A DNA stretch of 64,000 nt from Vicinamibacterales bacterium (GCA_963816265.1 CAWFJQ010000003.1:1681620-1745619); one strand, 5' to 3'; shown: positions 9,191-46,997, counted from the stretch's first letter. Program-made: numbers and translations. The notes: generated by a model not told the origin, from the sequence alone.

Positions 9191-9214
9191 GGGGAGCTCT
9201 CCGCCCGATCAGAG

Positions 9215-12707: not shown

Positions 12708-15700
12708 TCAACGATCGCGCGCGGGACGCGGCCGCCGGGCCAGCGCCTCGTTCAGCCGGGCGTCGTGGCGGTAGATGTCGTCGGCGAAGTAGACCTCGCC
12801 GTCCGCCGAGACGACGGCCGCGGTCGTGTAGAAGAGCACCACCCTGATCGGCGCCGCCAACTCCACCCGTGACGACACCGCGCCGGCCATCGCCGCCTCG
12901 ATCCGGGCCCGGTCCCAGCCCGTCTCGTCGCGCAGCACCCACTCGGCCAACGCCGTCGGGTCCTCGACCCGGACGCAGCCGTGGCTGAAGTCCCGGCGCT
13001 GCTGCTGGAACAACCCGACCGCCGGCGTGCCGTGCAGGTAGACGTCGGAGGCGTTGGGGAAGACGAATTTGACAAGGCCGAGCGCGTTGCCCGGGCCCGG
13101 TCGCTGGCGCAGCCGGAGCGTCCCGGCTCGCAGCCCGGCGAGTGCCGCCGCTGTCGCCGGGACCGCGTCGGCCTCGTCGCTCTGGCCGTCGACGATCTCG
13201 TAGTCGGCCGGGAGCCGCCGGGTCGGATCGCGCTCGAGTTCCGGCAGCATCTCCTTGAGCAGGATCGATCGCGGCACGTTCCAGTACGGCCGGAAGATCA
13301 CCGTTCGCATCAGGGCGGTGAACACCGGCGTCTCGGTGAGCAGCGCCCGTCCGACGATGACCCGCATCCGCAGCGCCGGTCGGGACGCGTCGGCGCCATC
13401 CCACGCCCCGAGCCGGAACATCGGGATGTTCAGCGCGACGATGCGCTCGTCGCCGGCATCGGGCAACCAGCGCAGCCGCTCGAGCGACAGCTCGATCTGG
13501 CGGATGCGCGCTCGCACGGGCACCGCCAGGGCGGCCCGTGTCGCACGCCCAAGCACACCGTCCGACGCCAGGCCGTGACGCGCCTGGAAGCGGCACACGC
13601 CAGCCACGAGCGTGTCGTCGTAGACGCCGGCGTCAGCGGCCGGCGGCGCATCCGCCGGCAGATCGCCGAACGCCGCCAGGCGCTGGCGCAGGGCGTTGGC
13701 CGTCTCCAGCCGGTCGCTCGGGCGGATCGCCTGCGGTACTGAAGGCCAGGCCGTGTCGGGCAGATCGCCGATGGCACGATACCGGGCCAGTTGGCGACGC
13801 AGCGCCTGGTACTGCGGGAGGGAAGGCGCCAGGGTGGCGGCAACGGCCGGCACGTCGTGCGCGGCCAACGCCGCCTGCAGGAGACCGACGAACGCATGGC
13901 GTTCGGGCTCGGCGTCGAGCGAGATGCCGAGCGACCGGGGATCGACGCGGCCCCGATGGACGTGACGGAAGTAGCGCAGCATCCCGGCGCTCAGCCGGAC
14001 GTCGAAGGCGGCCAGCCGTTCGGCGTCCGGCGCCGGCGCCGCGGCCACCGCCGCGGCCAGCTCGCGCAACGTGTCCAGGCCGTAGTCCGCCGGATCGAGC
14101 CCATCATCCGGCGCTGCGGCGAGCACGCCGATCGCCTCGCGCGCGTCTGTGGTGAGCCGTCCGGAGGCGTCGCTCCACAGGGCCAGGCCCGGTCCCGCAG
14201 CGTAGAGCGCGTCGAGCTCCGCTCGCTCGGACGCGGTGAGGCCAGCCGGGATCTGGCCAGCCGGGATCTGGCCCGTCGGGATCTGGCACGTCGGGCCGGC
14301 CCAGGCACTCGGTGGGAGCGACAGCGTCACGGCCAGCACGAGCAGGGCGTCCCGGGTCGAACGCGGCCAGCGCTTGACCGCTTGCCCCACCAGGGCCGGC
14401 AGGGCCGCCAGGCCGACGACGACCAGCCACTCGGTCCCATCGAGCGGCGTCAGTCCGATCGTCGACGCGATGCCGGGCACGGCGACCGACAGCCACTGCA
14501 GCCCCACCGCAACCGCGACGGCGAGCAGCGCGTAGGGATTGGCCAAGGCCCGCGACGGGTGCAGCACGTGGTGCGGGCTCCGGGCGTTGCCCAGATGGAA
14601 GATCTGGGTCAGGCCCAGCGTCATGAAGCAGACCGTCGTCGCGTGCCCCGGAGCACGGCCCAGCGCCCAGAGGAAGGCGGCCAGCGCCACGACCGTGATG
14701 AGCACGGCATAGAAGACGATCGAGCCGACGAACGAGGCGGACAGCAAGGCCTCGCGCGGATCCCGCGGCGGGCGCTTCATGACGTCGTGATCCGCCGGCT
14801 CCAGCGCCAGCGCCAGCGCCGGGAACGTGTCCGTGACCAGGTTCAGCCACAGGATCTGCAGCGGCAACAGCGGCAGCGGCAGCGCGGCCAGGCCCGCGAC
14901 CGTCAGCACGAGCACCTCGGCGAGGTTGCAGCTGAAGAGATAAAAGACGAACTTGCGGATGTTGTCGTAGACGACCCGGCCTTCCTCGACGGCGGCCGCG
15001 ATGGTCTCGAAGCGGTCGTCCTGCAGGACGATGGCGGCGGCCTCCTTCGCGACGTCGGTGCCGCGCCGGCCCATGGCGACGCCGACGTCCGCCTGCTTGA
15101 GGGCGGCGGCATCGTTGACGCCATCGCCCAGCATCGCGACCACGTCGCCCTGCTCCTGCAGCGACTGGACGACGCGCAGCTTGTCTTCCGGCGCGATGCG
15201 GCTGAACGCGCCCGCGGCGCTGATCCGCTCGCGCAGCTCGGCCGGCGACAGCCCCGCCAGCTCGCGGCCGTCGATCACCTCCGAGACGGCGCCGACGATC
15301 CCCAGCTCCCGGCCGACGGCGGCGGCCGTGTTGCGCTGATCACCGGTGAGCATGACGGTCCGCATGCCGGCCGCTCGCAGCCGGACGATCGTCTCCCGCA
15401 CGCCGTCGGCGGGCGGATCCATCAGCCCGACGAACCCGATGAAGGTCAGGCCGCCGAGGTGTGACTCGTCCGGCTGATCCACCGGGCCGCCCGCGACACC
15501 GAGCACGCGGAGGCCGCCGGCGGCGAGCCGCTCGTTGACGGCGACCAGCTCCGCCCGCCCAGCCTCGTCCAACGACTCGAGGCGACCGTTCCGGCGAACG
15601 TGCCGGCAGAGATCGACGATGCGGCCGGGCGCGCCCTTCACGCTGGCGACGACGGCGCCCGCTTCCCGACCGAAGGTGGCGGCCAGCTTGCGCTCGCTCG

Positions 15701-17030
15701 AGAACGGCACTATGCCAATCGGGGCGGCACCGGTCGCGTCGGCGAGACCGAGGCCGGCCGCTTCGGCGCCGCGCACCAGAGCGCGATCGACGGGATCGTC
15801 GACCGCGCCCGCGTCATCGAGGTCGGCGGCGGGCGGCCGACTGGCCCGGACCGCCACCCGCATCGCCTCCGCGCACGCCGCCGCGGGCGGCTCGCCGGTA
15901 CGGCGGCCCGGCTCGAACACCGCGTCCGGCGTCCAGACCGTGACCAGGGTCATGTCGCCGGAGGTGAGCGTTCGCGTCTTGTCGCTGCACACGACGGTGA
16001 CCGAGCCGAGGGCCTCGACGGCGGCGAGACGGCGGACCAGCGCGCGGCGCGCGGCCATGCGTCGCAGACCGATGGCGAGCGCGATGGTGGCGACCGCCGG
16101 CAGCGCCTCCGGCACCGCGGCCACCGCCAGCGCAATCCCCATCTCGAGCACGAGCGGCAGCGGCTGGCCGTGCAGCAGGTTGAGGCCCGAGGCGGCGGCC
16201 GTCATCGCGAGCACCAGCCAGACCAGGCGGCGGCCGAGCTCGTCGAGACGGCGCTCGAGGGGCGTCGGCGCCTCGGGAATCGCCGCGACGAGCGTGCTGA
16301 TGCGGCCCAGCTCGGTGCGGTCACCGGTCGCGGCGACGACCGCGCGGCCGGTGCCGGCGATGACGGTCGTGCCCTTGTAGATCATGGTGACGCGGTCGGC
16401 GAGCGGGACGCCGGGGTCGAGCACCACCGTCGCGTGCTTCGATACCGGCATCGACTCGCCGGTCAGGGCCGCTTCCGAGACGCGCAGGTCATGCGTGGTC
16501 AGCACCCGCGCGTCGGCCGGGACGCTCTGCCCGCGGCCGACCTCGATCACGTCGCCCGGGACCAGCATCTGCGCGTCGACGATCGCCGTGACGCCGTCGC
16601 GCACGACCGCGCAGCGTGAGACGTCGAGCCCCAGCAGGGCATGCATGGCGCGCCGGGCCCGCAGGTCGATGGTGAAGCCCAGCGCGGTGTTCAGCACCAG
16701 GACCGCGCCGATGGCGGTGGCCTCGGCGAGATCGCCGATGGCGAGCGAGATCGCCGTCGCGGCGATCAACAGCCACACCACGATGCTGCGCAGCTGGGCG
16801 CGGAGGATTTGGCTCGCCGAGACCGGGCTGGCCGGGGCGAGCCGATTCGGCCCGCCGCACGCCAGGCGTTCCGCCGCGACGTCCTGCGTCAGACCCTCCG
16901 CACTCGAGTCGAGGCGCGACAGGGCCTCGTACGGGGTCAGGGTGTGCCAGGCGACGACGGGCGGTGCGGTGCCGGGGCTCACGGCGGCCACAGTCGGCTC
17001 AGGAGCAGGCGGCAGGTACGGTTCCGGCAC
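12708..17030 (-). CDS. Single 1440-aa ORF: an N-terminal P-type (type II, Ca/Mg-like) cation ATPase joined in frame to a C-terminal YcbB/LdtD-like L,D-transpeptidase.
   Basis: ATPase part: cation-ATPase N-domain, TGES, phosphorylation loop CSDKTRTLT, MLTGD, GDGVNDAAAL and TM helices. The junction reads ..ALVGQAVKRWPRSTRDALLVLAVTLSLPPSAWAGP and looks like a Sec signal peptide. After it come a PG-binding domain (VCRFQARHGLASDGVLG) and a YkuD domain with the catalytic SHGCVRV. Confidence 0.8.
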   Translation of the reverse strand: MPEPYLPPAPEPTVAAVSPGTAPPVVAWHTLTPYEALSRLDSSAEGLTQDVAAERLACGGPNRLAPASPVSASQILRAQLRSIVVWLLIAATAISLAIGDLAEATAIGAVLVLNTALGFTIDLRARRAMHALLGLDVSRCAVVRDGVTAIVDAQMLVPGDVIEVGRGQSVPADARVLTTHDLRVSEAALTGESMPVSKHATVVLDPGVPLADRVTMIYKGTTVIAGTGRAVVAATGDRTELGRISTLVAAIPEAPTPLERRLDELGRRLVWLVLAMTAAASGLNLLHGQPLPLVLEMGIALAVAAVPEALPAVATIALAIGLRRMAARRALVRRLAAVEALGSVTVVCSDKTRTLTSGDMTLVTVWTPDAVFEPGRRTGEPPAAACAEAMRVAVRASRPPAADLDDAGAVDDPVDRALVRGAEAAGLGLADATGAAPIGIVPFSSERKLAATFGREAGAVVASVKGAPGRIVDLCRHVRRNGRLESLDEAGRAELVAVNERLAAGGLRVLGVAGGPVDQPDESHLGGLTFIGFVGLMDPPADGVRETIVRLRAAGMRTVMLTGDQRNTAAAVGRELGIVGAVSEVIDGRELAGLSPAELRERISAAGAFSRIAPEDKLRVVQSLQEQGDVVAMLGDGVNDAAALKQADVGVAMGRRGTDVAKEAAAIVLQDDRFETIAAAVEEGRVVYDNIRKFVFYLFSCNLAEVLVLTVAGLAALPLPLLPLQILWLNLVTDTFPALALALEPADHDVMKRPPRDPREALLSASFVGSIVFYAVLITVVALAAFLWALGRAPGHATTVCFMTLGLTQIFHLGNARSPHHVLHPSRALANPYALLAVAVAVGLQWLSVAVPGIASTIGLTPLDGTEWLVVVGLAALPALVGQAVKRWPRSTRDALLVLAVTLSLPPSAWAGPTCQIPTGQIPAGQIPAGLTASERAELDALYAAGPGLALWSDASGRLTTDAREAIGVLAAAPDDGLDPADYGLDTLRELAAAVAAAPAPDAERLAAFDVRLSAGMLRYFRHVHRGRVDPRSLGISLDAEPERHAFVGLLQAALAAHDVPAVAATLAPSLPQYQALRRQLARYRAIGDLPDTAWPSVPQAIRPSDRLETANALRQRLAAFGDLPADAPPAADAGVYDDTLVAGVCRFQARHGLASDGVLGRATRAALAVPVRARIRQIELSLERLRWLPDAGDERIVALNIPMFRLGAWDGADASRPALRMRVIVGRALLTETPVFTALMRTVIFRPYWNVPRSILLKEMLPELERDPTRRLPADYEIVDGQSDEADAVPATAAALAGLRAGTLRLRQRPGPGNALGLVKFVFPNASDVYLHGTPAVGLFQQQRRDFSHGCVRVEDPTALAEWVLRDETGWDRARIEAAMAGAVSSRVELAAPIRVVLFYTTAAVVSADGEVYFADDIYRHDARLNEALARRPRPARDR
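14241..14297. repeat. 15-bp tandem repeat (about 3.8 copies) encoding QIPxG repeats just after the internal signal peptide.
   Basis: Reads GCCAGCCGGGATCTG GCCAGCCGGGATCTG GCCCGTCGGGATCTG GCACGTCGGGCC. On the coding strand this translates as CQIPTGQIPAGQIPAG. Confidence 0.85.
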
Positions 17031-17496
17031 TGGCCGTGGCCGAATGCCGCGCCGGCGTGCCGACGCTGATCCCGGCGAGCACGTCGAGCACGGCGATCCG
17101 CAGCGGATCGGTGCCCGGCGCCTGGGCGGCCCACCGCACGATGTCGTCGATCGACACGATGCCGACCAGGACGCCCCCGTCCCCGAGCACCGGCAGGCGC
17201 CGCACGTGGTACTGCACCATCGTCAGCAAAGCCACGACGCTGTCGTCGTCCGGGGCGCAGCCAATCACCGGCTGCGTCATCACGTTGCGGGCCACCAGCG
17301 TCGACGCCGGCACGTCCCGTCTGCCGAGCGCGATGCAGGCATCACGGTCGGTGACGACGCCGACGGCCTCGCCGCGCTCGTTGACGACCGGCACGATACC
17401 GCACCCGTAGGTGCTCATGGTGTCGATGATGGAGCCCAGGTTGGTGTCGGGACCGCAGGTCCTGACCGTTCCGCCCATGATGGCCTTGATCTTCAT
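16999..17496 (-). CDS. CBS-pair domain protein.
   Basis: ATG 17496 is preceded by AAGGGAG. Reads MKIKAIMGGTVRTCGPDTNLGSIIDTMSTYGCGIVPVVNERGEAVGVVTDRD..VMTQPVIGCAPDDDSVVALLTMVQYHVRRLPVLGDGGVLVGIVSIDDI. The 3' end overlaps the ATPase start by 32 nt. Confidence 0.8.
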   Translation of the reverse strand: MKIKAIMGGTVRTCGPDTNLGSIIDTMSTYGCGIVPVVNERGEAVGVVTDRDACIALGRRDVPASTLVARNVMTQPVIGCAPDDDSVVALLTMVQYHVRRLPVLGDGGVLVGIVSIDDIVRWAAQAPGTDPLRIAVLDVLAGISVGTPARHSATASAGTVPAACS

Positions 17497-38031: not shown

Positions 38032-38197
38032 CTAGTCCCCTGGAACCGTGATAGCTGGGACAAGTCCCGGAGCGCGGCGCCCCGCGGGCAAGGCGCGACG
38101 AGGAAGGATATTGGGCATATTCGACCGAGGAGCAACGCCGCCCCCGGGGATGCCCCGCCCGGGAATTGTTCTAGAAATCACGGTTCCAGGGGACTAG
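38032..38197. repeat. 166-bp nested-palindrome repeat element, copy E1.
   Basis: The arms are a perfect 21-bp inverted repeat: CTAGTCCCCTGGAACCGTGAT (38032-38052) and ATCACGGTTCCAGGGGACTAG (38177-38197). The core is conserved with the copies at 5319 and 56597. It lies between convergent genes, and the right arm contains the TAG stop of the 38194 gene. Confidence 0.85.
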
Positions 38198-38640
38198 GCA
38201 GCCGGGGTGTCCCGGTGGAGCTGGCCGGTGACGAGCGCGACCACAGCGGCCGAGTCGACCGGCTTGGCGACGACCGTCACCCCCTCCAGACGGCTGGCGG
38301 AGACATCGCCGCCCGAGTCGAGGACGAGGCACGGCGCCACTCCGGTCTGGGCCCGCAGGTCGCGAAGGCTGGCCGCGTCCCGGCCCTCGAGCATCTCACC
38401 GTCGACCATCACCAGATCGGGCGCGACAGCCCCGCGCAGGGCGGTCGAGGCCTCGGCCAACGACCCGCACGGCACGACGTCGACAGCGCAGCCGCGCAGC
38501 GACTCGGCGACGAACCAGCGATACAGCGCCTCCCGATCGACGAGCAGCACCGTCGCGGCAGCGGAAGGGACAGCAGGGGGATCCCGCGAGCGCGGATGGT
38601 CCGGCACGATCAGCCTCACGGCGTCCGACGCAACAGACAT
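38194..38640 (-). CDS. Stand-alone receiver-domain protein.
   Basis: ATG 38640 follows GAGGTGG. Reads ..TVLLVDREALYRWFVAESL..PDLVMVDGEM..VVAKPVD. Confidence 0.6.
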   Translation of the reverse strand: MSVASDAVRLIVPDHPRSRDPPAVPSAAATVLLVDREALYRWFVAESLRGCAVDVVPCGSLAEASTALRGAVAPDLVMVDGEMLEGRDAASLRDLRAQTGVAPCLVLDSGGDVSASRLEGVTVVAKPVDSAAVVALVTGQLHRDTPAA

Positions 38641-38768
38641 GCCACCTCGCTGGCGCAGCCTGGGACGCCAGCTGCCCGCTGGTCGCGTGATGCGCCACGA
38701 CCTGGCCGCGAGAAAGCTCGCCGAGGCGGGGATTTTTGCGACGCCCTCGGGCGGCTGCGTCGGGTGGC

Positions 38769-40163
38769 TCAGGCCCCCACGCCCAGCGTGGCCACGAACC
38801 GGCTGCCGGCTTCGCTCGCTTCGAGCTGGAGGCTGCCCCCATGCTGCTCGGCAATCCAGCGTGCGATGGGCAGGCCGAGTCCCCCTCCAGCGGTCGGCCG
38901 GGAGGTTTCCAGCCGCACGAACCGCTCGAAGACGTGGTCCCGCCTGGCCTCCGGAATGCCGGGCCCGGCGTCGTCGACGGTCAGCCGGATCTGCCCCAGC
39001 GTGACGGCCACCGCGACGGCGACCGCACTGCCCTCCGGCGAGTAGCGGATCGCGTTGTCGAGCAGGTTCATCACCATCCGCCGCAGCAGCTCGTCGTCGC
39101 CGCGCATCTGGACGCCCTCGGGCGCCTCGAGCGCGATGGTGATGCCGCGCTCGGCGGCGAGCACCGCCGCGGCCCGCACGCACTCGGCCACGACCTCGTC
39201 GAAGTAGAGATGGCGCGGCTCCAGCGTCCGCCCGCCGACGTCGGCCAGCGCCAGCACGAACATGTCGTCGACGACGCGCGTCAGCCGCTCGGTCTGACTG
39301 GCGACGATGTCGAGCGCCTCGCGATACTCGGCCTCGGTCCGGCTCGGGGCGGCGAGCGTGACCTGGGCGGCCGTCCGCGCCACCGACACGGGGGTGCGCA
39401 GCTCGTGCGAGGCGTCGGCCATGAAGCGGCGCTGGACGCCGACGGACGCCGACAGGCGGTCGAGCACGCCGTTGAAGGCCACCGTCAGCCGCCCCAGCTC
39501 GTCGCGCGGGCCGGGGACCGGCAATCGCGCGTCGACATGCCGCGGATCGATCGCATCGGCATGCGCCGCCGTCTGCGCGAGCGGGAGTAGCGCGCGCCAC
39601 ACGAGCAGCCAGCCGCCAGCCAGCGCGACCAGCGCGGCAATCGGGATGGCGATGCGGACGGTGTTCATGACCGTGGCATGGTCGCGGTCCAACGGCGCCA
39701 GCGCGGTCCACACGACGACCGCGTAGGCGTTCGTTCCTTGGCGCCACCGCGACGCCGCGACCCGCAGCCGCTCCGGCTCGAGCGTGCGGGGCACGTCCGT
39801 CGCCACGACCTGCTGTTGCCGCTCCGGGCTCAGCGCCGGCGCGCCGCCATACCGTGTCGCCAGCTGGCGGCCGCTTTCGTCCAGCACCGACACGCCGACG
39901 CCGGGCAGCTCCAGCTCGACCATCGCTTCGAGCGCACCGGCCGCCAGCGACCGCCGCTCGGTGACTTCGCTGTTCACGACGCCGGCAGCCGACCGCATCG
40001 CGTGCGTCAGATCGGTGTCGATGCGGGCGAGTCCGAGCCGTTCGTGGACGGTGCCGACCGCGAAGGCAAGGACGGTGAGGACCGCGACCATGACGAGGCC
40101 GTAGCTCACGGCCAGTCGGGTCCGGACCCCGAGCCATCGACGTCCCGGGACGGGCGGACTCAT
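38769..40163 (-). CDS. Membrane sensor histidine kinase (two TM helices, HAMP, HisKA, HATPase).
   Basis: ATG 40163 overlaps the RR stop (ATGA). It has the H-box ADASHELRTP, LLDNAIRYSP, DDAGPGIP and GGGLGLPIA. Confidence 0.85.
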   Translation of the reverse strand: MSPPVPGRRWLGVRTRLAVSYGLVMVAVLTVLAFAVGTVHERLGLARIDTDLTHAMRSAAGVVNSEVTERRSLAAGALEAMVELELPGVGVSVLDESGRQLATRYGGAPALSPERQQQVVATDVPRTLEPERLRVAASRWRQGTNAYAVVVWTALAPLDRDHATVMNTVRIAIPIAALVALAGGWLLVWRALLPLAQTAAHADAIDPRHVDARLPVPGPRDELGRLTVAFNGVLDRLSASVGVQRRFMADASHELRTPVSVARTAAQVTLAAPSRTEAEYREALDIVASQTERLTRVVDDMFVLALADVGGRTLEPRHLYFDEVVAECVRAAAVLAAERGITIALEAPEGVQMRGDDELLRRMVMNLLDNAIRYSPEGSAVAVAVAVTLGQIRLTVDDAGPGIPEARRDHVFERFVRLETSRPTAGGGLGLPIARWIAEQHGGSLQLEASEAGSRFVATLGVGA

Positions 40164-40852
40164 GACTCCTGCTCGCTCCCGTCGGCGCTGAGCAGGTAGC
40201 CGGCGCCGCGGCGGGTCCGGATCGCGTCGTGGCACGCGGTCGGCGCCAGCTTGGCCCGCAGCCGGCGGACGTAGACGTCGATGACGTTCGAGAGCGGATC
40301 GTAGGAGCTGTCCCAGACGTGCTCGGCGATGTCCTCGCGGGTGACGACCCGGCCGGCGCGCCGGGCCATGAACTCGAGGAGCGCGTACTCGCGGGTCGTC
40401 AGCGGCAACGCCGCGTCGCGGCAGAACGCCAGCTGGGCATGCGTGTCGAGCACCAGCTCGCCGACGTGCAGGCGCTCGTTCTCCGGCGGCCGGGCTCCAC
40501 GTCTGGTCAGCGCCCGGAGGCGCGCCAGCAGCTCGCCGAAGTCGAACGGCTTGAGCAGATAGTCGTCGGCTCCGCTGTCGAGCCCGGCGATGCGGGAGTC
40601 GACGGCGTCGCGGGCGGTGAGGATGAGGATCGGCGCCGTCGTGCCGGCGGCCCGGATCCGCCGGCACAGCGTCAGGCCGTCGACGTCGGGCAGGCCGAGA
40701 TCGAGGACGATGAGGTCGTAGTCGTGGTCGGCGACGAGGGCCGCGGCCCCGCGCGCGCTCTGGGCGACGTCGACCGCGTAGGCTTGTTCCCGCAGTCCCT
40801 TGGCGAGCATGCGGATGGTGAGCGGCTCGTCCTCGATCAGCAGGAGGCGCAC
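40160..40852 (-). CDS. OmpR-family response regulator.
   Basis: Reads MRLLLIEDEP..LIVLDLGLPDVDG..DDYLLKPF.., followed by a winged-helix domain LTTREYALLEFMARRAGRVVTRE..VDVYVRRLRAKL. Confidence 0.9.
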   Translation of the reverse strand: MRLLLIEDEPLTIRMLAKGLREQAYAVDVAQSARGAAALVADHDYDLIVLDLGLPDVDGLTLCRRIRAAGTTAPILILTARDAVDSRIAGLDSGADDYLLKPFDFGELLARLRALTRRGARPPENERLHVGELVLDTHAQLAFCRDAALPLTTREYALLEFMARRAGRVVTREDIAEHVWDSSYDPLSNVIDVYVRRLRAKLAPTACHDAIRTRRGAGYLLSADGSEQES

Positions 40853-40958
40853 GACGCCATTGTCTCCGAGGCCAGCGGCGATGGCGCTGTCATTCGCGGT
40901 TCATCTTGGTCCACTAGTGTTTTGCGTCACCATCGCGGGCGGGGGGGCCGGGGCGCAC

Positions 40959-41420
40959 ATGAACGAACCGTCGGTCACGCTTCGCCGCCTGCTGCTCTGG
41001 CTGCTGCTCGTGGGCCTGGCCGGCATGGCCACCGAACTGACGCTCCTCAGGCACTACGACAGCACGAGCATGGTGATACCGTTTCTCGCGATGGCCGTGG
41101 CCGCTGCAGGCGCTGCGTGGCGGCTGGTCCGGCCGTCGGCGGCCAGCGTCCGCTGGCTGCGCGCGGCGATGGTGCCGATGATGGCGGCCGGCGCGACGGG
41201 TGCCTACCTGCACTACCTGGCCGGCCTGGACTTCCAGGCCGACATGGACCCGACGCTGTCGCGGTGGCAGCTGCTCTGGAAGGTGCTGCACATGCAGGCG
41301 CCCCCGATGCTCGCGCCGGGTGTGCTGGTCCAGTTCGCGCTGCTGGGCCTCGTCTCGACCTACCGTGATCCCCTGACGGCCGCGTCCGCCGCCGATTCAG
41401 CGAGAGGAGTCCGCCCGTGA
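40959..41420 (+). CDS. Hypothetical 4-TM membrane protein; first gene of the redox operon.
   Basis: Reads MNEPSVTLRRLLLWLLLVGLAGMATELTLL.., with four hydrophobic helices. The stop overlaps the next GTG (GTGA). Confidence 0.6.
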   Translation: MNEPSVTLRRLLLWLLLVGLAGMATELTLLRHYDSTSMVIPFLAMAVAAAGAAWRLVRPSAASVRWLRAAMVPMMAAGATGAYLHYLAGLDFQADMDPTLSRWQLLWKVLHMQAPPMLAPGVLVQFALLGLVSTYRDPLTAASAADSARGVRP

Positions 41421-42101
41421 CCCAACACCTGTCGTCGACCGTCATCCCGAGCGACCAGCCGAGGCCCAGACGAGCCGCGCTCCTGGCCGCCACGATCGCC
41501 GTGGCCCTCGTGCTGCTCGCGGCCCCTGCGCAGGCACAGGTGGGCGCCGGGCTCGCCGACCTCAACGCCGTGCCCGAGGCTACGCTCGCCACGATGCCGG
41601 GCCTGACGCCGGCAATCGCCAAGGCCTTCGTCGCCGCCAGGCCCTTTGGAACGATCGTCGAGGCCAACGCCTTCCTGCTCCGGCAGTCGCTGACCGCGGA
41701 GCAGCTGGCGCTCCTCTACCAGAAGGCGTTCGTGCACGTGAACCTGAACACCGCCACGGCGCCCGAGGTCCTGCTCATCCCGCGCATCGCGCGCCGGATG
41801 GCGCACGAGTTCGAGGAATACCGGCCGTGGGTGTCGATGGCGCAATTCGACAAGGAGATCGGCAAATACGTCGATGCGGCCGAAGTCGCCCGGCTGAAGC
41901 AGTACCGTCTTCATTCCGCTCGATCTGAACACCGCGACCGACGATGCCTTCAAGACCATCCCGAACCTGCCCGCCACCATGCTGCGGGAGTTCAAGGAAT
42001 ATCGCCCCTGGAAGACCAAGGCGCAGTTCGAGAAGGAGATCGGCAAGTACGTCGGTCCGCTGGAAACGGCCCGGCTCTGGCGTTTCATGGTCATCAAATA
42101 G
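41417..42101 (+). CDS. Exported protein with helix-hairpin-helix-like repeats; one apparent frameshift near 41905-41915.
   Basis: Signal ..LVLLAAPAQAQ. Repeated modules: VNLNTATAPEVLLIPRIARRMAHEFEEYRPWVSMAQFDKEIGKYVDAAEVARL and LDLNTATDDAFKTIPNLPATMLREFKEYRPWKTKAQFEKEIGKYVGPLETARL. The second lies in the shifted frame and ends at TAG 42099-42101. Confidence 0.65.
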
Positions 42102-42104
42102 CTC

Positions 42105-43256
42105 GTGCCTGTTCGAGTGACGCCGCTGCGGCAGATGGCGGCGCTGACCTGCTGGCTGGCAGCGCTGGCCGGCGTGTCGGCGCAGTCGAGGCGGGCCGAC
42201 GTCCCGCCCGTGGCGACCGCCGCGCCGGCGCTGGCTGCGGCCGCGACCGGCGAGGAGGTCTACCGGGCGGCCTGCCTCACCTGTCACGGCCAGCGTGGCA
42301 CCGGATCGCCGCGATCGGTCGTCGGCTTCGACACGGCGCTGCCCGACTTCACGGACTGCGCCTTTGCGTCCGCGGAAGCCGATGCCGATTGGCATGCCGT
42401 CGTGCACGAGGGTGGCCGGATTCGCGGCCTGGCGCGGCGCATGCCGGCGTTCGGCGACGCGCTGAGCGACGCGAACATCGCAGCGGTCATCGGCTACGTC
42501 CGGCAGTTCTGCACCGATCGCGCCTGGCCGTCGGGTGACCTGAACCTGCCGCGAGCGATGTTCACCGAGAAGGCGTTCCCGGAGAACGAGGTCGTCTACA
42601 CGAGCACGATCGCCCGCGGCGACGATGCCGTCGTCGGCAGCCAGGTCGTCTACGAGCGCCGCATCGGCGCGCGCAACCAGATCGAGGCCGTCGTGCCGGT
42701 CGACCGGGTGAAGCACGACGGCAGCTGGCGAACGGGCCTCGGAGACGTGGCGCTCGCCTTCCGACGTACCGTCTTCGCCAGCCGCCGGAGCGGAACGGTG
42801 GCGGCTGCCGGCGCCGAGGTGGCCTTCCCCACCGGAGACGCCGCCAGCGGTCTCGGCAACGGGCACCGCGTCGTCGAGCCTTTCGCGATGGTCGGCCAGG
42901 TCCTCCCGCGCAACGCCTTCCTCCAGGTGCACGGGGGGCTCGAGATTCCCTCGGACGGGTCGGCCGCCAAGGAGGCCTACCTGCGGAGCGCCGTGGGCTT
43001 CACCTACCTGGCGGACCGGAGTTTCGGCCGCGCCTGGTCGCCGCAAGTCGAGGTACTGTTCGCCAGGCCGTTCGGCGGCTCCGCCGAATGGGATGTCGTG
43101 CCGCAGATGCAGGTGACGCTGTCGAAGATCCAGCACGTCAGCGTGGCCGGCGGCGTGCGCATCCCGCTGAGCCAGCGCGGCGAGCGCGGGGCCGCCGTCG
43201 TCAGCTATCTGCTCTGGGACTGGTTCGACGGTCCGTTCACCAGCTTCTGGAAGTAG
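42105..43256 (+). CDS. Fusion of a class I cytochrome c domain and a predicted outer-membrane beta-barrel.
   Basis: Intact 383-aa ORF. Signal ..WLAALAGVSAQS. Heme motif CLTCH with a distal RRMPAFG. After that come about 250 aa of alternating-hydrophobic strands (about 12), ending ..GPFTSFWK. Confidence 0.7.
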   Translation: MPVRVTPLRQMAALTCWLAALAGVSAQSRRADVPPVATAAPALAAAATGEEVYRAACLTCHGQRGTGSPRSVVGFDTALPDFTDCAFASAEADADWHAVVHEGGRIRGLARRMPAFGDALSDANIAAVIGYVRQFCTDRAWPSGDLNLPRAMFTEKAFPENEVVYTSTIARGDDAVVGSQVVYERRIGARNQIEAVVPVDRVKHDGSWRTGLGDVALAFRRTVFASRRSGTVAAAGAEVAFPTGDAASGLGNGHRVVEPFAMVGQVLPRNAFLQVHGGLEIPSDGSAAKEAYLRSAVGFTYLADRSFGRAWSPQVEVLFARPFGGSAEWDVVPQMQVTLSKIQHVSVAGGVRIPLSQRGERGAAVVSYLLWDWFDGPFTSFWK

Positions 43257-43258
43257 CG

Positions 43259-44938
43259 ATGCGGCGACCTCCGCGGCCACCGTCCCACGCCCTGCTCGGC
43301 TGTGCCGGCCTGGCGCTGCTGCTCGCCGTGTCGCTGCGGGCGCAGTCGCCGCCGAGCGCCGGCACGAAGAGTGGACCGCCGGCGCGCCACGCAGCGGCGG
43401 CGCCCTTCAGCCATTCCGACGACTGCGTCGCCTGTCACAACGCCCTGACCGCCCCGTCCGGCGAAGACGTGTCGATCGGCGCCGCGTGGCGGTCGACGAT
43501 GATGGCCAACTCCGCCCGCGATCCCTACTTCCACGCGAGTCTCCGCCGGGAGACGATGGACCATCCGACGCGGGCCGCCGAGATCCAGGACGAATGCGCC
43601 GCCTGCCACGTGCCGATCGGGCACCGGACGGCACATGCCGCCGGCCGTTCCGCAGTCGTGCTCCAGGCCCTCGACGGAGGCGGCACGGCCGCGGCCGCGG
43701 CCGAGCCCGACCGGCTGGCGGGCGACGGCGTCTCGTGCACCGTCTGTCACCAGATCGCGCCTGACGGACTGGGGTCGCCGGCCTCGTTCAACGGCAACTT
43801 CGTCGTGCGACCGCCGCGCGCCGACGGCGTCCGCGAAGCCTTCGGGCCGTTCGACGTGGATCCGGGCCGGCACACGATCATGCGCTCGGTCACCGGCTTC
43901 GAGCAGGTCGAAGGCGGGCACGTCCGCCAGTCGGAGCTGTGCGCCACCTGCCACACCCTCATCACCCAGGCGTTCGATCGCGACGGACGCGTGATCGGCT
44001 CGCTGCCGGAACAGATGAACTACCAGGAGTGGCGGCACAGCGCCTTCTACGACGAAGGGCGCAGCTGCCAGAGCTGTCACATGCCGAGGGCCGCGGGACC
44101 GATCCGGGTCTCGTCCGTGCTCGGCGCCGAGCGCGACGGGTTGTCCCGTCATGCCTTCGTCGGCGGCAACGCCTTCATGCTGCGGCTGCTCAACCGCTTC
44201 CGCGACGAGCTCGGCGTCGAGGCGCCGCCGGAGGCGCTCGAGGCCACCGCGCGTCTGACGGAGCGTCAGCTCAGCTACGACACGGCGACGGTCGAGGCGA
44301 CGGCGCCCCAGCGATCCGGCGACGGCATCGAGTTCGACGTCGTCGTGCGCAACCTCACCGGCCACAAGTTCCCGACCGGCTATCCGTCCCGGCGCGCCTG
44401 GCTGCACGTGACCGTGACCGACGACGGCGGCCAGGTGCTGTTCGAGTCGGGCGCGACGGCGCCGGACGGATCCATCGCCGGCAGCGACAGCGACGCCGAT
44501 GCGCAGGCCTTCGAGCCGCACTACGACGTGATCGATCGGCCGGAGCAGGTCCAGATCTACGAGTCCGTCATGGGCGACGTGGCGGCACGGCCGACGACGG
44601 GGCTGCTGTCCGCCGTGCGCTACCTGAAGGACAACCGGCTGCTGCCGCGCGGCTTCGACAAGCGGACGGCGCCCGCGGAGATTGCCGTCGTCGGGGACGC
44701 GGTCACCGACGCCTCGTTCGCCGCCGGCGCCGATCGCCTCCGCTACCGGGTGCGGATCCCCGCGGATCGCCGGCTGGGACGGGTTGCGGTGGAACTCCGG
44801 TATCAGCCGATCGCGTATCGCTGGGCCCGCAACCTCGGCACCTACGCGGCCCCTGAGCCGGCCCGCTTCGTGAGCTTCTTCGACCAGCTGGCGAGCGCCG
44901 CTTCGGTGATCGTCGCGACAGCCGCGCGGGACAACTAG
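43259..44938 (+). CDS. Exported pentaheme c-type cytochrome.
   Basis: ATG 43259 with signal ..LLLAVSLRAQS. Five CXXCH motifs: CVACH, CAACH, CTVCH, CATCH and CQSCH. The C-terminal domain contains NLTGHKFPTGYPSRRAWL. Confidence 0.85.
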   Translation: MRRPPRPPSHALLGCAGLALLLAVSLRAQSPPSAGTKSGPPARHAAAAPFSHSDDCVACHNALTAPSGEDVSIGAAWRSTMMANSARDPYFHASLRRETMDHPTRAAEIQDECAACHVPIGHRTAHAAGRSAVVLQALDGGGTAAAAAEPDRLAGDGVSCTVCHQIAPDGLGSPASFNGNFVVRPPRADGVREAFGPFDVDPGRHTIMRSVTGFEQVEGGHVRQSELCATCHTLITQAFDRDGRVIGSLPEQMNYQEWRHSAFYDEGRSCQSCHMPRAAGPIRVSSVLGAERDGLSRHAFVGGNAFMLRLLNRFRDELGVEAPPEALEATARLTERQLSYDTATVEATAPQRSGDGIEFDVVVRNLTGHKFPTGYPSRRAWLHVTVTDDGGQVLFESGATAPDGSIAGSDSDADAQAFEPHYDVIDRPEQVQIYESVMGDVAARPTTGLLSAVRYLKDNRLLPRGFDKRTAPAEIAVVGDAVTDASFAAGADRLRYRVRIPADRRLGRVAVELRYQPIAYRWARNLGTYAAPEPARFVSFFDQLASAASVIVATAARDN

Positions 44939-45039
44939 TCATCCGCCATTCATCTTGCAGTCATACGCTCGGGGTGAGGGCGGCGGAGCGGCGGTGCCTG
45001 CCGGAAGCAGCCGCGCCACGACTCACCTGGAGGATCTCG

Positions 45040-45627
45040 ATGATGTATCTGGATTGGAAGCGCGGGCTGGCCGCCGCGGTCGTTCTCTGTCTGCCGGCCG
45101 CCGGCGCATCCGGGCAGTCGATTCGCGCCTCGGCCGAGACCGCGGCCGCCCTGGCTGCGGCCGAGCCCGTCAGCGCACAGACGGCGCCGCCGCCGCAGGC
45201 CTTCGACTACAGCGACGCCTACCGCCTCCGCGCCAAGATCCACAAGGTGTCGAGCCTGGCGACGCTGCCGCTCTTCGCCACCGAAGGCATCATCGGCCAG
45301 TCGCTCTACTCGAATCCGACCGGCGGCAAGAAGGACGCGCACCTGGCCGTCGCCGCCGGGATCGGCGCGTTGTTCGCCGTCAACAGCGTGACGGGCGTGT
45401 GGAACCTGATCGAGGCGCGGAAGGATCCGAATCATCGCCAGCGTCGTCTCCTGCACGGCCTGCTGATGCTCGGCGCCGACGCCGGCTTCGTCACCACCGC
45501 GGCGCTCGCGCCCGAAAGCGAGCACGGCTCGGCCTCCGGCTCACGCGGCGCCCACCGGGCGGCGGCCTTCACGGCGATCGGGCTGGCGACCACGGGCTAC
45601 CTGGTGATGCTGCTCGGGGACCACTGA
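45040..45627 (+). CDS. Hypothetical membrane protein: signal plus about 4 TM helices.
   Basis: ATG 45040 follows CTGGAGGA. Reads MMYLDWKRGLAAAVVLCLPAAGASG.., with C-terminal helices. Confidence 0.55.
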   Translation: MMYLDWKRGLAAAVVLCLPAAGASGQSIRASAETAAALAAAEPVSAQTAPPPQAFDYSDAYRLRAKIHKVSSLATLPLFATEGIIGQSLYSNPTGGKKDAHLAVAAGIGALFAVNSVTGVWNLIEARKDPNHRQRRLLHGLLMLGADAGFVTTAALAPESEHGSASGSRGAHRAAAFTAIGLATTGYLVMLLGDH

Positions 45628-45628
45628 G

Positions 45629-46111
45629 ATGCCGGCGATTCGAGCGATCGTCGAGACCTGGGCCGCCTTCTACGCCAACTCGCCCGCCGCCCGCAGCGCC
45701 CTCACCTTCACCCACGTCGGCGCGCTGGTCGTCGGCGGCGGCTCCGCGATCGCGGCCGACCTGGGCACGGTCGGCGCGCTCCGCCGCGAGGCTCCCGCGC
45801 TGCGCGCCGAGCTGGAGCGGCTCCACGCGACCCACCGCCTGGTCACGACCAGTCTCGGGCTGGTCGTGTTGAGCGGCATCCTGCTCGTGCTCGCCGACCT
45901 CGACGCCTACCTCGCGTCGACGGCGTTCTGGATCAAGATGGGCCTGTTCGCCGCCCTCATCGTGAACGGCGCGATGGTGGTCGCGGCGTCGGCCCCGGCG
46001 CGCCAGGACAGCCCGCGCAACCGTGCCCGGCTGCGTCTGGCTGCTGTCGCCAGCCTGACGCTGTGGCTGGCGACCCTCCTCCTCGGCACGGTGGTGCCCA
46101 ATGTCCTGTAG
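45629..46111 (+). CDS. Hypothetical 4-TM membrane protein.
   Basis: Reads MPAIRAIVETWAAFYANSPAARSALTFTHVGALVVGGG.. The gap to the upstream gene is 1 nt, and it overlaps the Rieske gene. Confidence 0.55.
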   Translation: MPAIRAIVETWAAFYANSPAARSALTFTHVGALVVGGGSAIAADLGTVGALRREAPALRAELERLHATHRLVTTSLGLVVLSGILLVLADLDAYLASTAFWIKMGLFAALIVNGAMVVAASAPARQDSPRNRARLRLAAVASLTLWLATLLLGTVVPNVL

Positions 46112-46586
46112 CGAGCGGTCGCGCCGCGATTTCCTGCACCATGGAGCCTGCGCACTGCTCACGGCTGGCGCGCTGGGCCTGTCGTCGCTCGACGTCTCGG
46201 CCCTCCCGGTGTCGTTCGTGACCGCCGTGACCGCCGCGGGAGAGCGTCGCTATCCGCTTCCCGCCGCCGACGGCGTGAGCATCGATCGGGTGGCGCAGGT
46301 CATCCTCGTCCGGGCCGGGCGGAGCGTCTACGCGATGGCGCTCGCCTGCCCGCACCAGAACGCGGCGGTCAAGTGGGTGGAGAAAGAACACCGGTTCCAG
46401 TGCTCGAAGCACGACTCGCGCTACACGCCCGATGGCAGCTACACCTCGGGGCGGGCGACGCGGAACCTCGATCGTTTCCCCGTCCGGCTGGAGGGCGATA
46501 CCGTCGTCGTCGGCACCGATCACGTCTTCCGCTCGGATCAGGACAAGGGCGCCTGGAGCGCGGCTCACGTCGAGCTGCCGGCGTGA
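46101..46586 (+). CDS. Tat-exported Rieske [2Fe-2S] domain protein.
   Basis: Twin-arginine leader SRRDFLHHGACALL. Cluster ligands ACPHQ (CxH) and QCSKHDS (CxxH). Confidence 0.8.
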   Translation: MSCSERSRRDFLHHGACALLTAGALGLSSLDVSALPVSFVTAVTAAGERRYPLPAADGVSIDRVAQVILVRAGRSVYAMALACPHQNAAVKWVEKEHRFQCSKHDSRYTPDGSYTSGRATRNLDRFPVRLEGDTVVVGTDHVFRSDQDKGAWSAAHVELPA

Positions 46587-46622: not shown

Positions 46623-46997
46623 TTACTGACGGACCGCCGCGCGCTGCCGCACCCTGGCCAGCCGGCGGCCGGCGTAGGTCTGCAGGATCCGGCCGGCCGA
46701 CTCGAACGCCTCGTGCATCGCGTGCAGCCAGCGATATTCGGCGATCGGCGGGCGTTGCCCATCGGGCATCGCGGTTCCCTCCGGCTCGGATTCGTACAAC
46801 GCGACCAGCTGTTCGTTGGGAACGCTCACTTCGACGACGACCCGCAGCATCCCGGCGTCATTCGGCTCCAGGAGCACGCGGCAATCGACGATACGGCCAC
46901 AGAACCGATCGAGGCGGCCGGCCTGGTCACGCGCGTACTCCTCGAGATCGGCCCGCGCCGACATGTGGCGGAAGGTGACGTAGACGGGCGTGGACAT
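46623..46997 (-). CDS. HPF/RaiA-like ribosome-associated (sigma-54-modulation family) protein.
   Basis: Reads MSTPVYVTFRHMSARADLEEYARDQAGRLDRFCGRIVDCRVLLEP..LRVVVEVSVPNEQLVA... This is a beta-alpha-beta-beta-beta-alpha pattern typical of the family. Assigned from motif memory. Confidence 0.55.
   Translation of the reverse strand: MSTPVYVTFRHMSARADLEEYARDQAGRLDRFCGRIVDCRVLLEPNDAGMLRVVVEVSVPNEQLVALYESEPEGTAMPDGQRPPIAEYRWLHAMHEAFESAGRILQTYAGRRLARVRQRAAVRQ

Follow-up and report, generated by a model that had tools for sequence, protein, structure and literature searches.

A cytochrome c–barrel fusion gene paired with a pentaheme cytochrome gene in Vicinamibacterales: a putative outer-membrane redox module

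Cyc2, found in Acidithiobacillus, Zetaproteobacteria and Gallionellaceae, is defined by a signal peptide, a single N-terminal CXXCH, a length of at least 365 aa, a PxFAR[Q/K][T/Y] motif 5 residues upstream of the heme motif and PxL 4 residues downstream, and its barrel is a 16-stranded porin like OprO/OprP. In MtrAB, PioAB and MtoAB, the gene of an outer-membrane barrel adjoins that of a multiheme cytochrome, and the barrel, of ~26 strands, encloses a decaheme wire. The pentaheme cytochromes of the c552/PHC family (Thermochromatium tepidum c552, PDB 5ze8; ExtKL/MccSep; Gsu2801; the PHCs of cable bacteria) have five CXXCH in an N-terminal heme domain and an Ig-like/beta-sandwich C-terminus; c552 is described as low-potential, and the polysulfide reductase MccSep (ExtKL) has a conserved Sec/Cys in a loop of the Ig domain and a Cys as the distal ligand of heme 2. 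Pentahemes of this class have been found encoded beside outer-membrane barrels before: ExtKL/MccSep has ExtI as its neighbour, and PtdA has PtdB. The latter two belong to the ptdABCDEFG cluster of marine Alphaproteobacteria, Nitrospirales and others, in which pentaheme PtdA stands beside a porin, together with genes for tetraheme, decaheme, flavoprotein and ferric-reductase-like proteins. The known barrels of the COG4313/Phenol_MetA_deg class (Pput2725, PDB 4rl8) and FapF (PDB 5o65) have 12 strands after a conserved segment, and none of them carries a cytochrome domain or has a multiheme partner.

We describe here a new variant among porin–cytochrome modules, encoded in a 64,000-nt stretch of DNA (hereafter the window) from a soil acidobacterium, a Vicinamibacterales bacterium. 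This two-gene redox module is common across Vicinamibacterales and is uncharacterised.

The gene cluster and its conserved pair

The features of the locus are as follows.
38194..38640, minus strand: 148-aa weakly receiver-like protein (NCBIfam receiver models only at E ~1e-3)
38769..40163, minus strand: sensor histidine kinase (Pfam HAMP, HisKA, HATPase_c)
40160..40852, minus strand: response regulator of the OmpR family, encoded divergently to the cluster (TIGR01387 heavy-metal regulator, 209.5 bits, cut-off 279.2)
40959..41420, plus strand: 153-aa four-helix (4-TM) membrane protein, accessory (ORF; conserved H32 and H85-Y86)
41417..42103, plus strand: exported HhH-repeat protein, accessory (HHH_3 match of 1e-11 once the frame is repaired)
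42105..43256, plus strand: 383-aa fusion protein, core gene 1 (signal peptide, class I cytochrome c domain, conserved linker, predicted 12-strand outer-membrane barrel)
42234..42506, plus strand: its cytochrome c domain, residues 44-134 (Pfam PF13442 at 1.4e-11, also PF00034)
42525..42584, plus strand: its linker WPxGDLNLPRAxFTEKAFPENE, residues 141-160 (invariant in alignment A1)
42585..43223, plus strand: its beta-barrel domain, residues 161-373 (~12 strands of 10-14 residues by DSSP, AlphaFold2 pLDDT 80-93)
43259..44938, plus strand: exported pentaheme cytochrome, 559 aa, c552/PHC class, core gene 2 (five invariant CXXCH, C-terminal beta-sandwich domains)
45040..45627, plus strand: 195-aa membrane protein, first gene of the Rieske module, starting 101 nt after the pentaheme gene
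45629..46111, plus strand: 160-aa four-helix membrane protein, weakly DUF2214/DUF6644-like (Pfam below threshold; conserved H29 and H69)
46101..46586, plus strand: 161-aa Tat-signal Rieske [2Fe-2S] protein (PF00355 at 2.3e-8)

The seven plus-strand ORFs from which a sequence-only reading of the window had assembled a redox operon are present at or near the positions it gave. Their spacings are, in order, -4, +1, +2, +101, +1 and -11 nt, so that the tight spacing claimed for them holds at most junctions (-4 to +2, with one of +101), but the last, said to be of 1-4 nt, is an 11-nt overlap. The HhH protein had been read with two EYRPW modules, and both are encoded; however, the gene is not a single intact ORF in the window, where three-frame translation revealed a frameshift due to one extra C at ~41905 relative to the homologue in locus L005, which places the second module in a different frame from the first. 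Five HhH homologues are intact and lack the insertion. The preceding 153-aa membrane protein had no match in a Pfam and NCBIfam search. On the other strand, the divergent OmpR-type two-component system was correctly recognised, and its best full-length matches are to heavy-metal subfamilies, below the curated cut-offs (for the kinase, the TIGR01386 heavy-metal sensor kinase over its full length, 234 bits). The ORF of the supposed orphan receiver exists, its identity as a receiver being weak, with no match in the Pfam search; the czc metal-efflux operon said to follow is represented by CzcA and a CDF transporter, which are encoded on the strand opposite to the cluster, running towards it.

The neighbourhood survey, which covered 84 related loci from Acidobacteriota MAGs, one homologue coming from a Candidatus Sulfopaludibacter MAG, reduces the operon to a smaller unit. 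The pentaheme gene lies immediately 3' of the barrel gene in 82 of the 84 loci, the remaining two running into a contig edge, and it also directly follows two stand-alone barrels without a cytochrome domain, which makes barrel and pentaheme the constant partners. The conserved unit is therefore this pair of genes, not seven. Around it the neighbourhood is modular: the 4-TM and HhH genes are present together in 21 loci and a DUF2231-TPR membrane protein in 12, with zero co-occurrence of the two, which suggests that they are alternative partners, and in ~60% of the loci no membrane partner adjoins the pair. A strong response-regulator homologue is found within 10 kb of the pair in nine loci, seven of which also have the 4-TM/HhH genes, and metal transporters are close to the pair in the window, L003 and L004.

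The two membrane proteins and the Tat-Rieske protein constitute an independent three-gene module. The Rieske protein is as the sequence-only reading had it, with an SRRDFL twin-arginine motif and the cluster ligands CPH (residue 83) and CSKH (residue 101), and the extra disulfide cysteines of the bc1/b6f type are absent from its sequence. It has 1221 homologues, and the gene beside Rieske homologues carries a DUF6644 annotation. The three genes are found together, and without the cytochrome pair, in Luteitalea sp. TBR-22 as well as in contigs from metagenomes. The module accompanies the pair in two of the 84 loci; besides the window, it adjoins the pair in L033 and is no more than 7 kb away in L007.

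The fusion protein and its pentaheme partner

The fusion of a cytochrome c domain to a beta-barrel beside a multiheme gene, as first read, is borne out. The protein has more than 4647 homologues, and the heme motif is retained, all 47 of the 47 aligned sequences having a single CXXCH (CLTCH, residues 57-61, in the window). M113-P-A-F-G is invariant in the fusion-protein alignment (A1), as are C85 and C136, and the sequence motifs point to a His/Met-ligated heme. The C-terminal part does model as a barrel, with 12-13 long strands at pLDDT 80-93 in the AlphaFold2 model, conserved polar residues at alternate positions and many invariant charged residues in the lumen (A1). The top 50 Foldseek matches are outer-membrane barrels throughout, led by FapF (1.5e-9) and the COG4313 channel 4rl8 (3e-5, TM-score 0.55 normalised to the target), with NanC, PcoB and KdgM among the others. 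The protein ends in FWK and so not in an aromatic residue, which counts against the module reading proposed below. We infer that the fusion protein is located in the outer membrane, with the corresponding topology.

The likeness to phenol-degradation-type barrels, proposed for comparison at the outset, is thus found at the level of the fold, and it extends to a conserved P-T-G loop motif and to a similarity to PF13557 that ranges from sub-threshold to significant. Among 36 family representatives, 12 match PF13557, at best with 4.4e-7, and the window barrel scores E 0.052 and 14 bits, under the 22-bit cut-off, which indicates a distant relative inside the superfamily and not a member. As in the monomeric 12-stranded barrel of COG4313, 12 strands are given by the AlphaFold2 model and by the match to 4rl8. 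The lumen, in contrast to COG4313/FapF, is rich in invariant charged residues. The linker, which is the best-conserved stretch of a 35%-identity alignment (A2) that takes in the stand-alone barrels, may correspond to the lumen-folded N-terminal segment of COG4313: the 20 residues before strand 1 are invariant, but their pLDDT is below 50. By analogy with Pput2725, we propose that the linker is probably a plug segment inserted in the barrel; since both the cytochrome domain and the linker are poorly modelled (pLDDT below 50, AlphaFold2), the geometry of the plug and of docking amounts to guesswork.

The sequence-only reading had assigned the protein to the architecture of the Cyc2-type iron oxidases. 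It does resemble Cyc2 in having a signal peptide and a single N-terminal c-type heme domain fused to an outer-membrane barrel (one CXXCH, at residue 57 of 383, in a protein longer than 365 aa), and in both the heme is expected to be periplasmic, so that a small substrate must enter the pore. However, PxFAR[Q/K][T/Y] upstream of CXXCH occurs in none of the 47 aligned fusion proteins, the window having GEEVYRAACLTCH at this place, and PxL downstream is likewise absent, the window having CLTCHGQRGTGSP. Unlike Cyc2, the heme belongs to a full class I cytochrome domain of ~90 residues whose invariant MPAFG would supply the Met ligand, the barrel has ~12 strands and falls in the COG4313/FapF class (FapF, COG4313, NanC and KdgM all being 12-strand barrels), and the protein is obligately paired with a pentaheme gene. 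With the signature motifs absent and 12 strands instead of 16, membership of the Cyc2 family is rejected, and the fusion looks to have originated independently of Cyc2.

The partner is the exported pentaheme cytochrome that had been announced, with a signal-like N-terminus, five CXXCH invariant in 47 homologues and a C-terminal half that is beta-rich. Its sole significant match among PDB folds is 5ze8 (Foldseek, 1.2e-9), to which it also has a profile match at 1.2e-5 spanning the NLTGHKFPTGYPSRR motif. The five CXXCH, the beta-sandwich C-terminus and the 5ze8 fold place it in the c552/PHC class, with which it shares the NL..H..PTG.P.R motif; a GHKFPTG loop is invariant in its beta-sandwich domains. 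It differs from the class in a C-terminus ~120 residues longer and in the lack of a Sec/Cys catalytic pair. No invariant Cys occurs outside the five heme motifs in the homologue alignment and the NCBIfam ExtKL model gives 35.8 bits against a cut-off of 250, and the pentaheme is thereby placed outside the MccSep polysulfide reductases. Lacking the MccSep Cys/Sec active site, it may therefore have no enzymatic role and only carry electrons.

Among described pairs, the barrel differs from ExtI in being of another class, much smaller and provided with its own cytochrome. The likeness to PtdAB is confined to the adjacency of pentaheme and barrel genes: the gene order is reversed, no fused cytochrome c is described for PtdB, the two barrels being compared here by description only, and none of the tetraheme, decaheme, flavoprotein or ferric-reductase-like genes of the ptd cluster recurs in the 84 neighbourhoods. 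A complex of the MtrAB type, with its ~26 strands, is rejected on the 12 strands of the barrel, which presumably cannot enclose a cytochrome, and MtrAB-like wiring across the membrane is thus not expected.

A proposed substrate gate and the alternatives

We propose, as a tentative reading that falls somewhat short of probable, that the pair forms a two-gene redox module of the outer membrane and periplasm, consisting of a substrate gate with a tethered cytochrome c that would feed, or be fed by, a periplasmic pentaheme oxidoreductase. A COG4313/FapF-class barrel would, in this lineage, have gained a class I cytochrome c domain with His/Met ligation at its periplasmic N-terminus, immediately before the segment that probably plugs the barrel, and the second gene would provide a periplasmic protein of the c552/ExtKL/PtdA class with a five-heme domain followed by beta-sandwich domains. 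The barrel would let in a small substrate, either external or drawn from the outer membrane, which the pentaheme would oxidise or reduce at the periplasmic mouth of the barrel, with the tethered cytochrome c as its built-in electron partner. Interchangeable accessories (4-TM and HhH, DUF2231-TPR or, in the window, the Rieske module) may carry the electrons to or from the inner membrane. Class I cytochromes c with His/Met ligation are high-potential, and since the invariant M113 fits such a cytochrome, the fused domain would be on the downhill side of a multiheme of low potential; which way the electrons run, and on what substrate, is to be read as conditional. The charged lumen is unlike the channel for hydrophobic substrates proposed for Pput2725, and this counts against the module reading, as do the sub-threshold PF13557 match of the window protein, the missing Cys/Sec site of the pentaheme and the ~60% of loci in which no membrane partner adjoins the pair.

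It is rather unlikely that the fusion protein is instead a Cyc2-like metal oxidase, in which the fused heme itself would oxidise Fe(II), Cu(I) or Mn(II) taken into the barrel and the pentaheme would do no more than pass the electrons inward. Such a function would share the logic of Cyc2, where one heme sits at the periplasmic end of the barrel to which it is fused; the lumen, being polar, charged and strictly conserved, is of a kind suited to ions, PcoB, a copper barrel, is among the fold matches, metal transporters are found near the pair at the three loci named above, and the nearest relatives of the divergent two-component system are of the heavy-metal CusS/CopS type, although such a system is near the pair in only about nine of the 84 loci. 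Against it also stand the missing Cyc2 motifs and 16-strand porin, and the stand-alone barrels, which retain the pentaheme partner without a heme domain, so that the fused heme is not an indispensable catalytic site. Vicinamibacteria, moreover, are not known to oxidise iron.

A reductase or oxidase of chalcogen or sulfur species, comparable to ExtI with ExtKL/MccSep, is less likely still. Polysulfide, elemental sulfur, selenite or tellurite would be admitted by the barrel, and the pentaheme step would be detoxifying or respiratory. The pentaheme belongs to one structural class with MccSep and the sulfur-bacterium c552, ExtI is a porin encoded beside ExtKL and implicated in selenite and tellurite reduction, and there is the homologue from Candidatus Sulfopaludibacter; hydrophobic molecules have been proposed as the cargo of COG4313 channels, elemental sulfur as such a substrate being conjecture. 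However, the Sec/Cys essential to MccSep and the Cys heme ligand are absent from the pentaheme, and sulfur-metabolism genes do not recur in the 84 neighbourhoods.

We consider it improbable that the barrel transports nothing and only anchors periplasmic cytochromes at the outer membrane or gives them a platform for assembly, in one version anchoring a polymerising c552-like cytochrome. FapF-type barrels do serve fibre biogenesis, the c552 class is structurally linked to archaeal cytochrome nanowires, and the conserved linker probably plugs the lumen; yet a 12-strand pore would be too narrow for a heme-loaded cytochrome, and the strictly conserved polar residues facing the lumen speak for gating of the channel or for a ligand bound specifically. 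The complete seven-gene conduit first envisaged, running via the pentaheme between the outer membrane and an inner-membrane Rieske centre, has the least to commend it and is very improbable, for although the genes of the window are co-directional and closely spaced, the Rieske module is near the pair in L033 and L007 and closer relatives may keep the same arrangement, that module is with the pair in so few loci and independent elsewhere, it starts only 101 nt beyond the end of the pentaheme gene, a frameshift interrupts the HhH gene and a heme chain would not fit the 12-strand barrel.

Possible implications for Vicinamibacterales

The gated two-gene module would, in its boldest form, represent a second, independently evolved family of cytochrome–porin fusions which, together with its obligate pentaheme, makes up a minimal outer-membrane redox gate, a proposition that we regard as doubtful. 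Vicinamibacterales are among the most abundant soil bacteria. If the proposition is true, electrons could pass between them and a substrate outside the cell or soluble in the membrane, for instance Fe(II), sulfur species or humic quinones, a capacity not currently attributed to them.

Gene layout and conserved modules

The region lies in DNA of ~71% G+C and contains seven open reading frames (ORFs) on the plus strand, separated successively by -4, +1, +2, +101, +1 and -11 nt:

40959-41420, +, ORF, four-helix (4-TM) membrane protein, 153 aa
41417-42103, +, ORF, HhH-repeat protein; HHH_3 (Pfam) in the repaired protein
42105-43256, +, ORF, fusion protein, 383 aa; Pfam cytochrome c domain at residues 44-134
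43259-44938, +, ORF, pentaheme protein, 559 aa; weak multiheme Pfam matches
45040-45627, +, ORF, membrane protein, 195 aa
45629-46111, +, ORF, membrane protein, 160 aa
46101-46586, +, ORF, Rieske protein, 161 aa; Pfam Rieske domain

The heme and cluster motifs described in the sequence-only reading are all present, namely CLTCH once in the 383-aa protein, CXXCH five times in the 559-aa protein, and SRRDFL with CPH...CSKH in the Rieske protein. The proposal of the same reading that the seven genes form one operon is contradicted by the neighbourhoods of 84 related loci and by the independent occurrence of the last three genes elsewhere. The barrel/cytochrome family extends to 316 or more species-level genomes, with few exceptions from soil Acidobacteriota; the 316 genomes with a relative, found in a scan of one genome per species, are nearly all MAGs of Vicinamibacterales or other Acidobacteriota, and the best 80 of them, together with four metagenome contigs, provided the 84 loci. 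The pentaheme gene lies directly 3' of the fusion gene in 82 of the 84, the remaining two being cut off by a contig edge. Both the 4-TM and the HhH gene are present in 21/84 loci, a close homologue of the two-component system is found near the pair in nine, and the Rieske trio (the 195-, 160- and 161-aa proteins) accompanies it in two only. This trio is conserved as a unit of its own in Luteitalea sp. TBR-22 (AP024452, locus L085, 6856-8477) and on other contigs, including L086 (6880-8444) and L087 (6751-8480), with no cytochrome pair nearby; its homologues, found in varied contexts in Vicinamibacteria, comprise a membrane protein of ~205-224 aa, a DUF6644-like protein of ~160 aa and a Tat-Rieske protein of ~158 aa. 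Two further small Rieske genes are located near the trio in Luteitalea. Because the Rieske trio is independent elsewhere and the 4-TM/HhH genes accompany only a quarter of the loci, the seven genes are three modules that happen to adjoin in the window, and the 101-nt gap coincides with one module boundary. Scans of the intergenic regions for promoters, terminators and repeats returned nothing beyond chance level.

The two EYRPW...KEIGKYV modules reported for the HhH protein are indeed encoded, but the second lies in a different frame owing to one extra C at ~41905, as revealed by alignment with an 87%-identical locus. Five HhH homologues read through this position without a shift (KQYVFIPLDLNTAT). 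The frameshift (41900-41910), which is due to a sequencing error or else marks a recent pseudogene, yields a spurious 373-aa ORF (41417-42538) overlapping the cytochrome gene.

On the minus strand, three regulatory genes encode an OmpR-family regulator and a HAMP histidine kinase, which make up the two-component system proposed earlier, and, for the proposed orphan receiver, a product that is only weakly receiver-like. The best full-length matches of the regulator and the kinase are to heavy-metal (CusRS/CopRS/CzcRS-type) subfamilies, both below curated cut-offs. The metal-efflux genes described as following the cluster do include CzcA and a CDF transporter, but both are on the opposite strand and converge on it. 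Immediately after the Rieske gene, a convergent gene (46623-46997, -) encodes a 124-aa protein resembling ribosome hibernation factors (S30AE family, E 6.6e-7). Elsewhere in the window, a P-type cation ATPase (residues 92-952) shares a single stop-free ORF of 1504 aa (12708-17222, -) with Scaffold, PG_binding_1 and YkuD L,D-transpeptidase domains (1002-1431); this ORF is either an unusual fusion or the product of a lost stop codon or frameshift. Another gene (7064-9208, -) encodes a type II/IV secretion ATPase (T2SSE) whose N-terminal domain is MshEN and whose C-terminal domain is a response-regulator receiver.

A cytochrome c fused to a 12-stranded barrel

The fusion protein has more than 4647 homologues in public data, mostly from soil metagenomes, annotated merely as mono/diheme cytochrome c or hypothetical. 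In an alignment of 47 sequences (58-84% identity), C57, C60, H61 and the M113-P-A-F-G segment are invariant, as are two further cysteines, C85 and C136, and a 20-residue linker (WPxGDLNLPRAxFTEKAFPENE). A segment of the M-P-A-F-G type is the usual methionine-ligand region in class I cytochromes c. The C-terminal strands carry many invariant polar residues two apart (E184/R186/R190/Q192/E194, Q314/E316, D330/Q334/Q336). Pfam gave no match in the C-terminal 250 residues, and PDB sequence searches with the fusion protein returned generic cytochrome c matches only. The AlphaFold2 model built from the 47-sequence alignment predicts ~12 strands of 10-14 residues between residues 161 and 373 (pLDDT 80-93), the linker and the cytochrome domain, modelled without heme, being poorly defined. 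When the barrel model was compared with the PDB by Foldseek, the top 50 matches were outer-membrane barrels only, led by FapF (E 1.5e-9, TM-score 0.66 normalised to the target) and including the COG4313 channel Pput2725 (E 3e-5), NanC, PcoB and KdgM, all of these being 12-stranded. The predicted strands and these matches bear out the earlier suggestion that the C-terminal part is an outer-membrane-type barrel. When the full database was searched with only the barrel domain, 681 clusters at 50% identity were obtained, and PF13557 (Phenol_MetA_deg, the COG4313 family) was matched by 12 of 36 barrel representatives (best 4.4e-7), the window protein itself reaching only E 0.052. On the basis of these profile and fold matches, the window barrel is a distant relative of the COG4313 channels. 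The barrel of Pput2725 takes up its own N-terminal 14 residues in the lumen; by analogy, the invariant linker is likely to be a barrel plug, in which case the cytochrome domain would sit at the periplasmic mouth.

Stand-alone barrels of 262-297 aa without the cytochrome domain also exist, and in both cases with flanking DNA a pentaheme homologue follows directly. Since these barrels share the adjacent pentaheme homologue, barrel and pentaheme form the constant part of the system, to which the cytochrome c domain has been added. Eight proteins among the representatives were predicted to join barrel and pentaheme in a single chain (P0130, P0158, P0172, P0174, P0187, P0192, P0209 and P0226). They were rejected as Rosetta-stone evidence: in most of them the heme motifs to be expected are missing, their metagenome contigs are fragmentary, and they are probably gene-calling or frameshift artefacts.

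The pentaheme partner and known systems

The pentaheme protein has at least 8000 homologues, which, where named by their source, are mostly hypothetical. Its CXXCH motifs, at residues 56, 113, 160, 228 and 270, are invariant in the family, as is the loop L-x-G-H-K-x-P-T-G-Y-P-x-R-R-x-W. The AlphaFold2 model (mean pLDDT 68) is of low confidence in the heme region, as expected, and of high confidence in the C-terminal beta domains. Its one significant fold match in the PDB is the penta-heme cytochrome c552 of Thermochromatium tepidum (5ze8, E 1.2e-9), and in a profile search the invariant loop aligned to RNLQPHAMPTGAPFRNLYL in c552 (E 1.2e-5), with a faint match to MccSep besides. In published work, cytochrome c552, Geobacter ExtKL/MccSep and the cable-bacteria pentahemes belong to one structural family, in which an N-terminal heme domain is combined with an Ig-like domain at the C-terminus. 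The polysulfide reductase MccSep is periplasmic, and a selenocysteine in its Ig-domain loop lies beside a Cys-ligated heme; such chemistry is excluded for the window protein, since the family alignment contains no conserved cysteine outside the heme motifs. The gene for ExtKL adjoins that for ExtI, a porin linked to the reduction of selenite and tellurite, and in a marine gene cluster PtdA is the neighbour of the porin PtdB. Both pairs resemble that of the window in setting a c552-class pentaheme beside an outer-membrane barrel. The window barrel is smaller, probably of another kind, and carries its own cytochrome, a feature not described for PtdB. As the association of a c552-like pentaheme with a porin has already been published for PtdAB, the window pair is a variant and not a new category.

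The fusion had been likened to Cyc2, a marker gene for iron oxidation and the only fused cytochrome-porin named in the literature searched. Keffer et al. define Cyc2 by a single CXXCH, PxFAR[Q/K][T/Y] five residues upstream, PxL four residues downstream and a 16-stranded OprO/OprP-like porin. The window protein shares only the single CXXCH, and its motifs and strand number (~12 versus 16) rule out membership. The overall architecture is alike, but barrel class and cytochrome domain differ, so that searches for Cyc2 would miss the window family; the fusion most likely arose independently. The literature found by searching for cytochrome-porin fusions and for Vicinamibacter cytochromes or porins concerned Cyc2 or unrelated work only, and none of the COG4313 papers listed, judged by title, dealt with a cytochrome fusion. 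A wire of the MtrAB type is excluded on geometric grounds, as we infer that a barrel of 12 strands leaves no room for a chain of hemes.

Proposed mechanism and substrate

The best-supported model joins a putative outer-membrane gate to a redox protein of the periplasm; the localisation, heme ligation, interaction and substrate of the pair are inferred from sequence and predicted structure. A small substrate would pass through or along the 12-strand barrel and, on the periplasmic side, would be transformed by the c552-class pentaheme or trade electrons with it. The tethered cytochrome c, predicted to be His/Met-ligated, could serve as a fixed electron partner of the pentaheme, and variable membrane proteins would link the pair to the inner membrane. 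In 12/84 loci the pair is directly flanked by a membrane protein that combines DUF2231 with a C-terminal TPR domain; its gene lies either ~+2.5 to +3.1 kb from the start of the barrel gene (L022, L023, L025-L027, L032, L033, L035, L036 and L044) or at ~-1 kb (L011 and L013), and never co-occurs with 4-TM/HhH. This mutual exclusivity, together with the conserved histidine pairs of the 4-TM protein (H32, H85) and the DUF6644-like protein (H29, H69), suggests, speculatively, that the membrane partners are interchangeable, with DUF2231-TPR as a possible alternative to 4-TM/HhH. PQQ-dependent dehydrogenases lie ~6 kb or less from the pair in eight loci; on the 418-kb contig of locus L001 (1-7188 and 17515-19821), where one of them has a cytochrome c domain, the surroundings of the pair also include two genes for cytochromes c and a complete cluster for an aa3-type oxidase.

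The substrate may be a metal ion, as favoured by the polar barrel lumen, the heavy-metal-type regulator adjoining the cluster and the efflux genes in the neighbourhood. The relatives of the pentaheme point instead to a sulfur or chalcogen species, which may equally be considered. The association of a c552-class pentaheme with an outer-membrane barrel is a recurring theme that ties together three separate observations, ExtI/ExtKL, PtdA/PtdB and the window pair. If the proposed function is true, the pair would constitute a small, tractable two-protein system for the passage of electrons or a redox substrate across the outer membrane, and surface redox exchange would be a process so far unrecognised in a dominant soil lineage.
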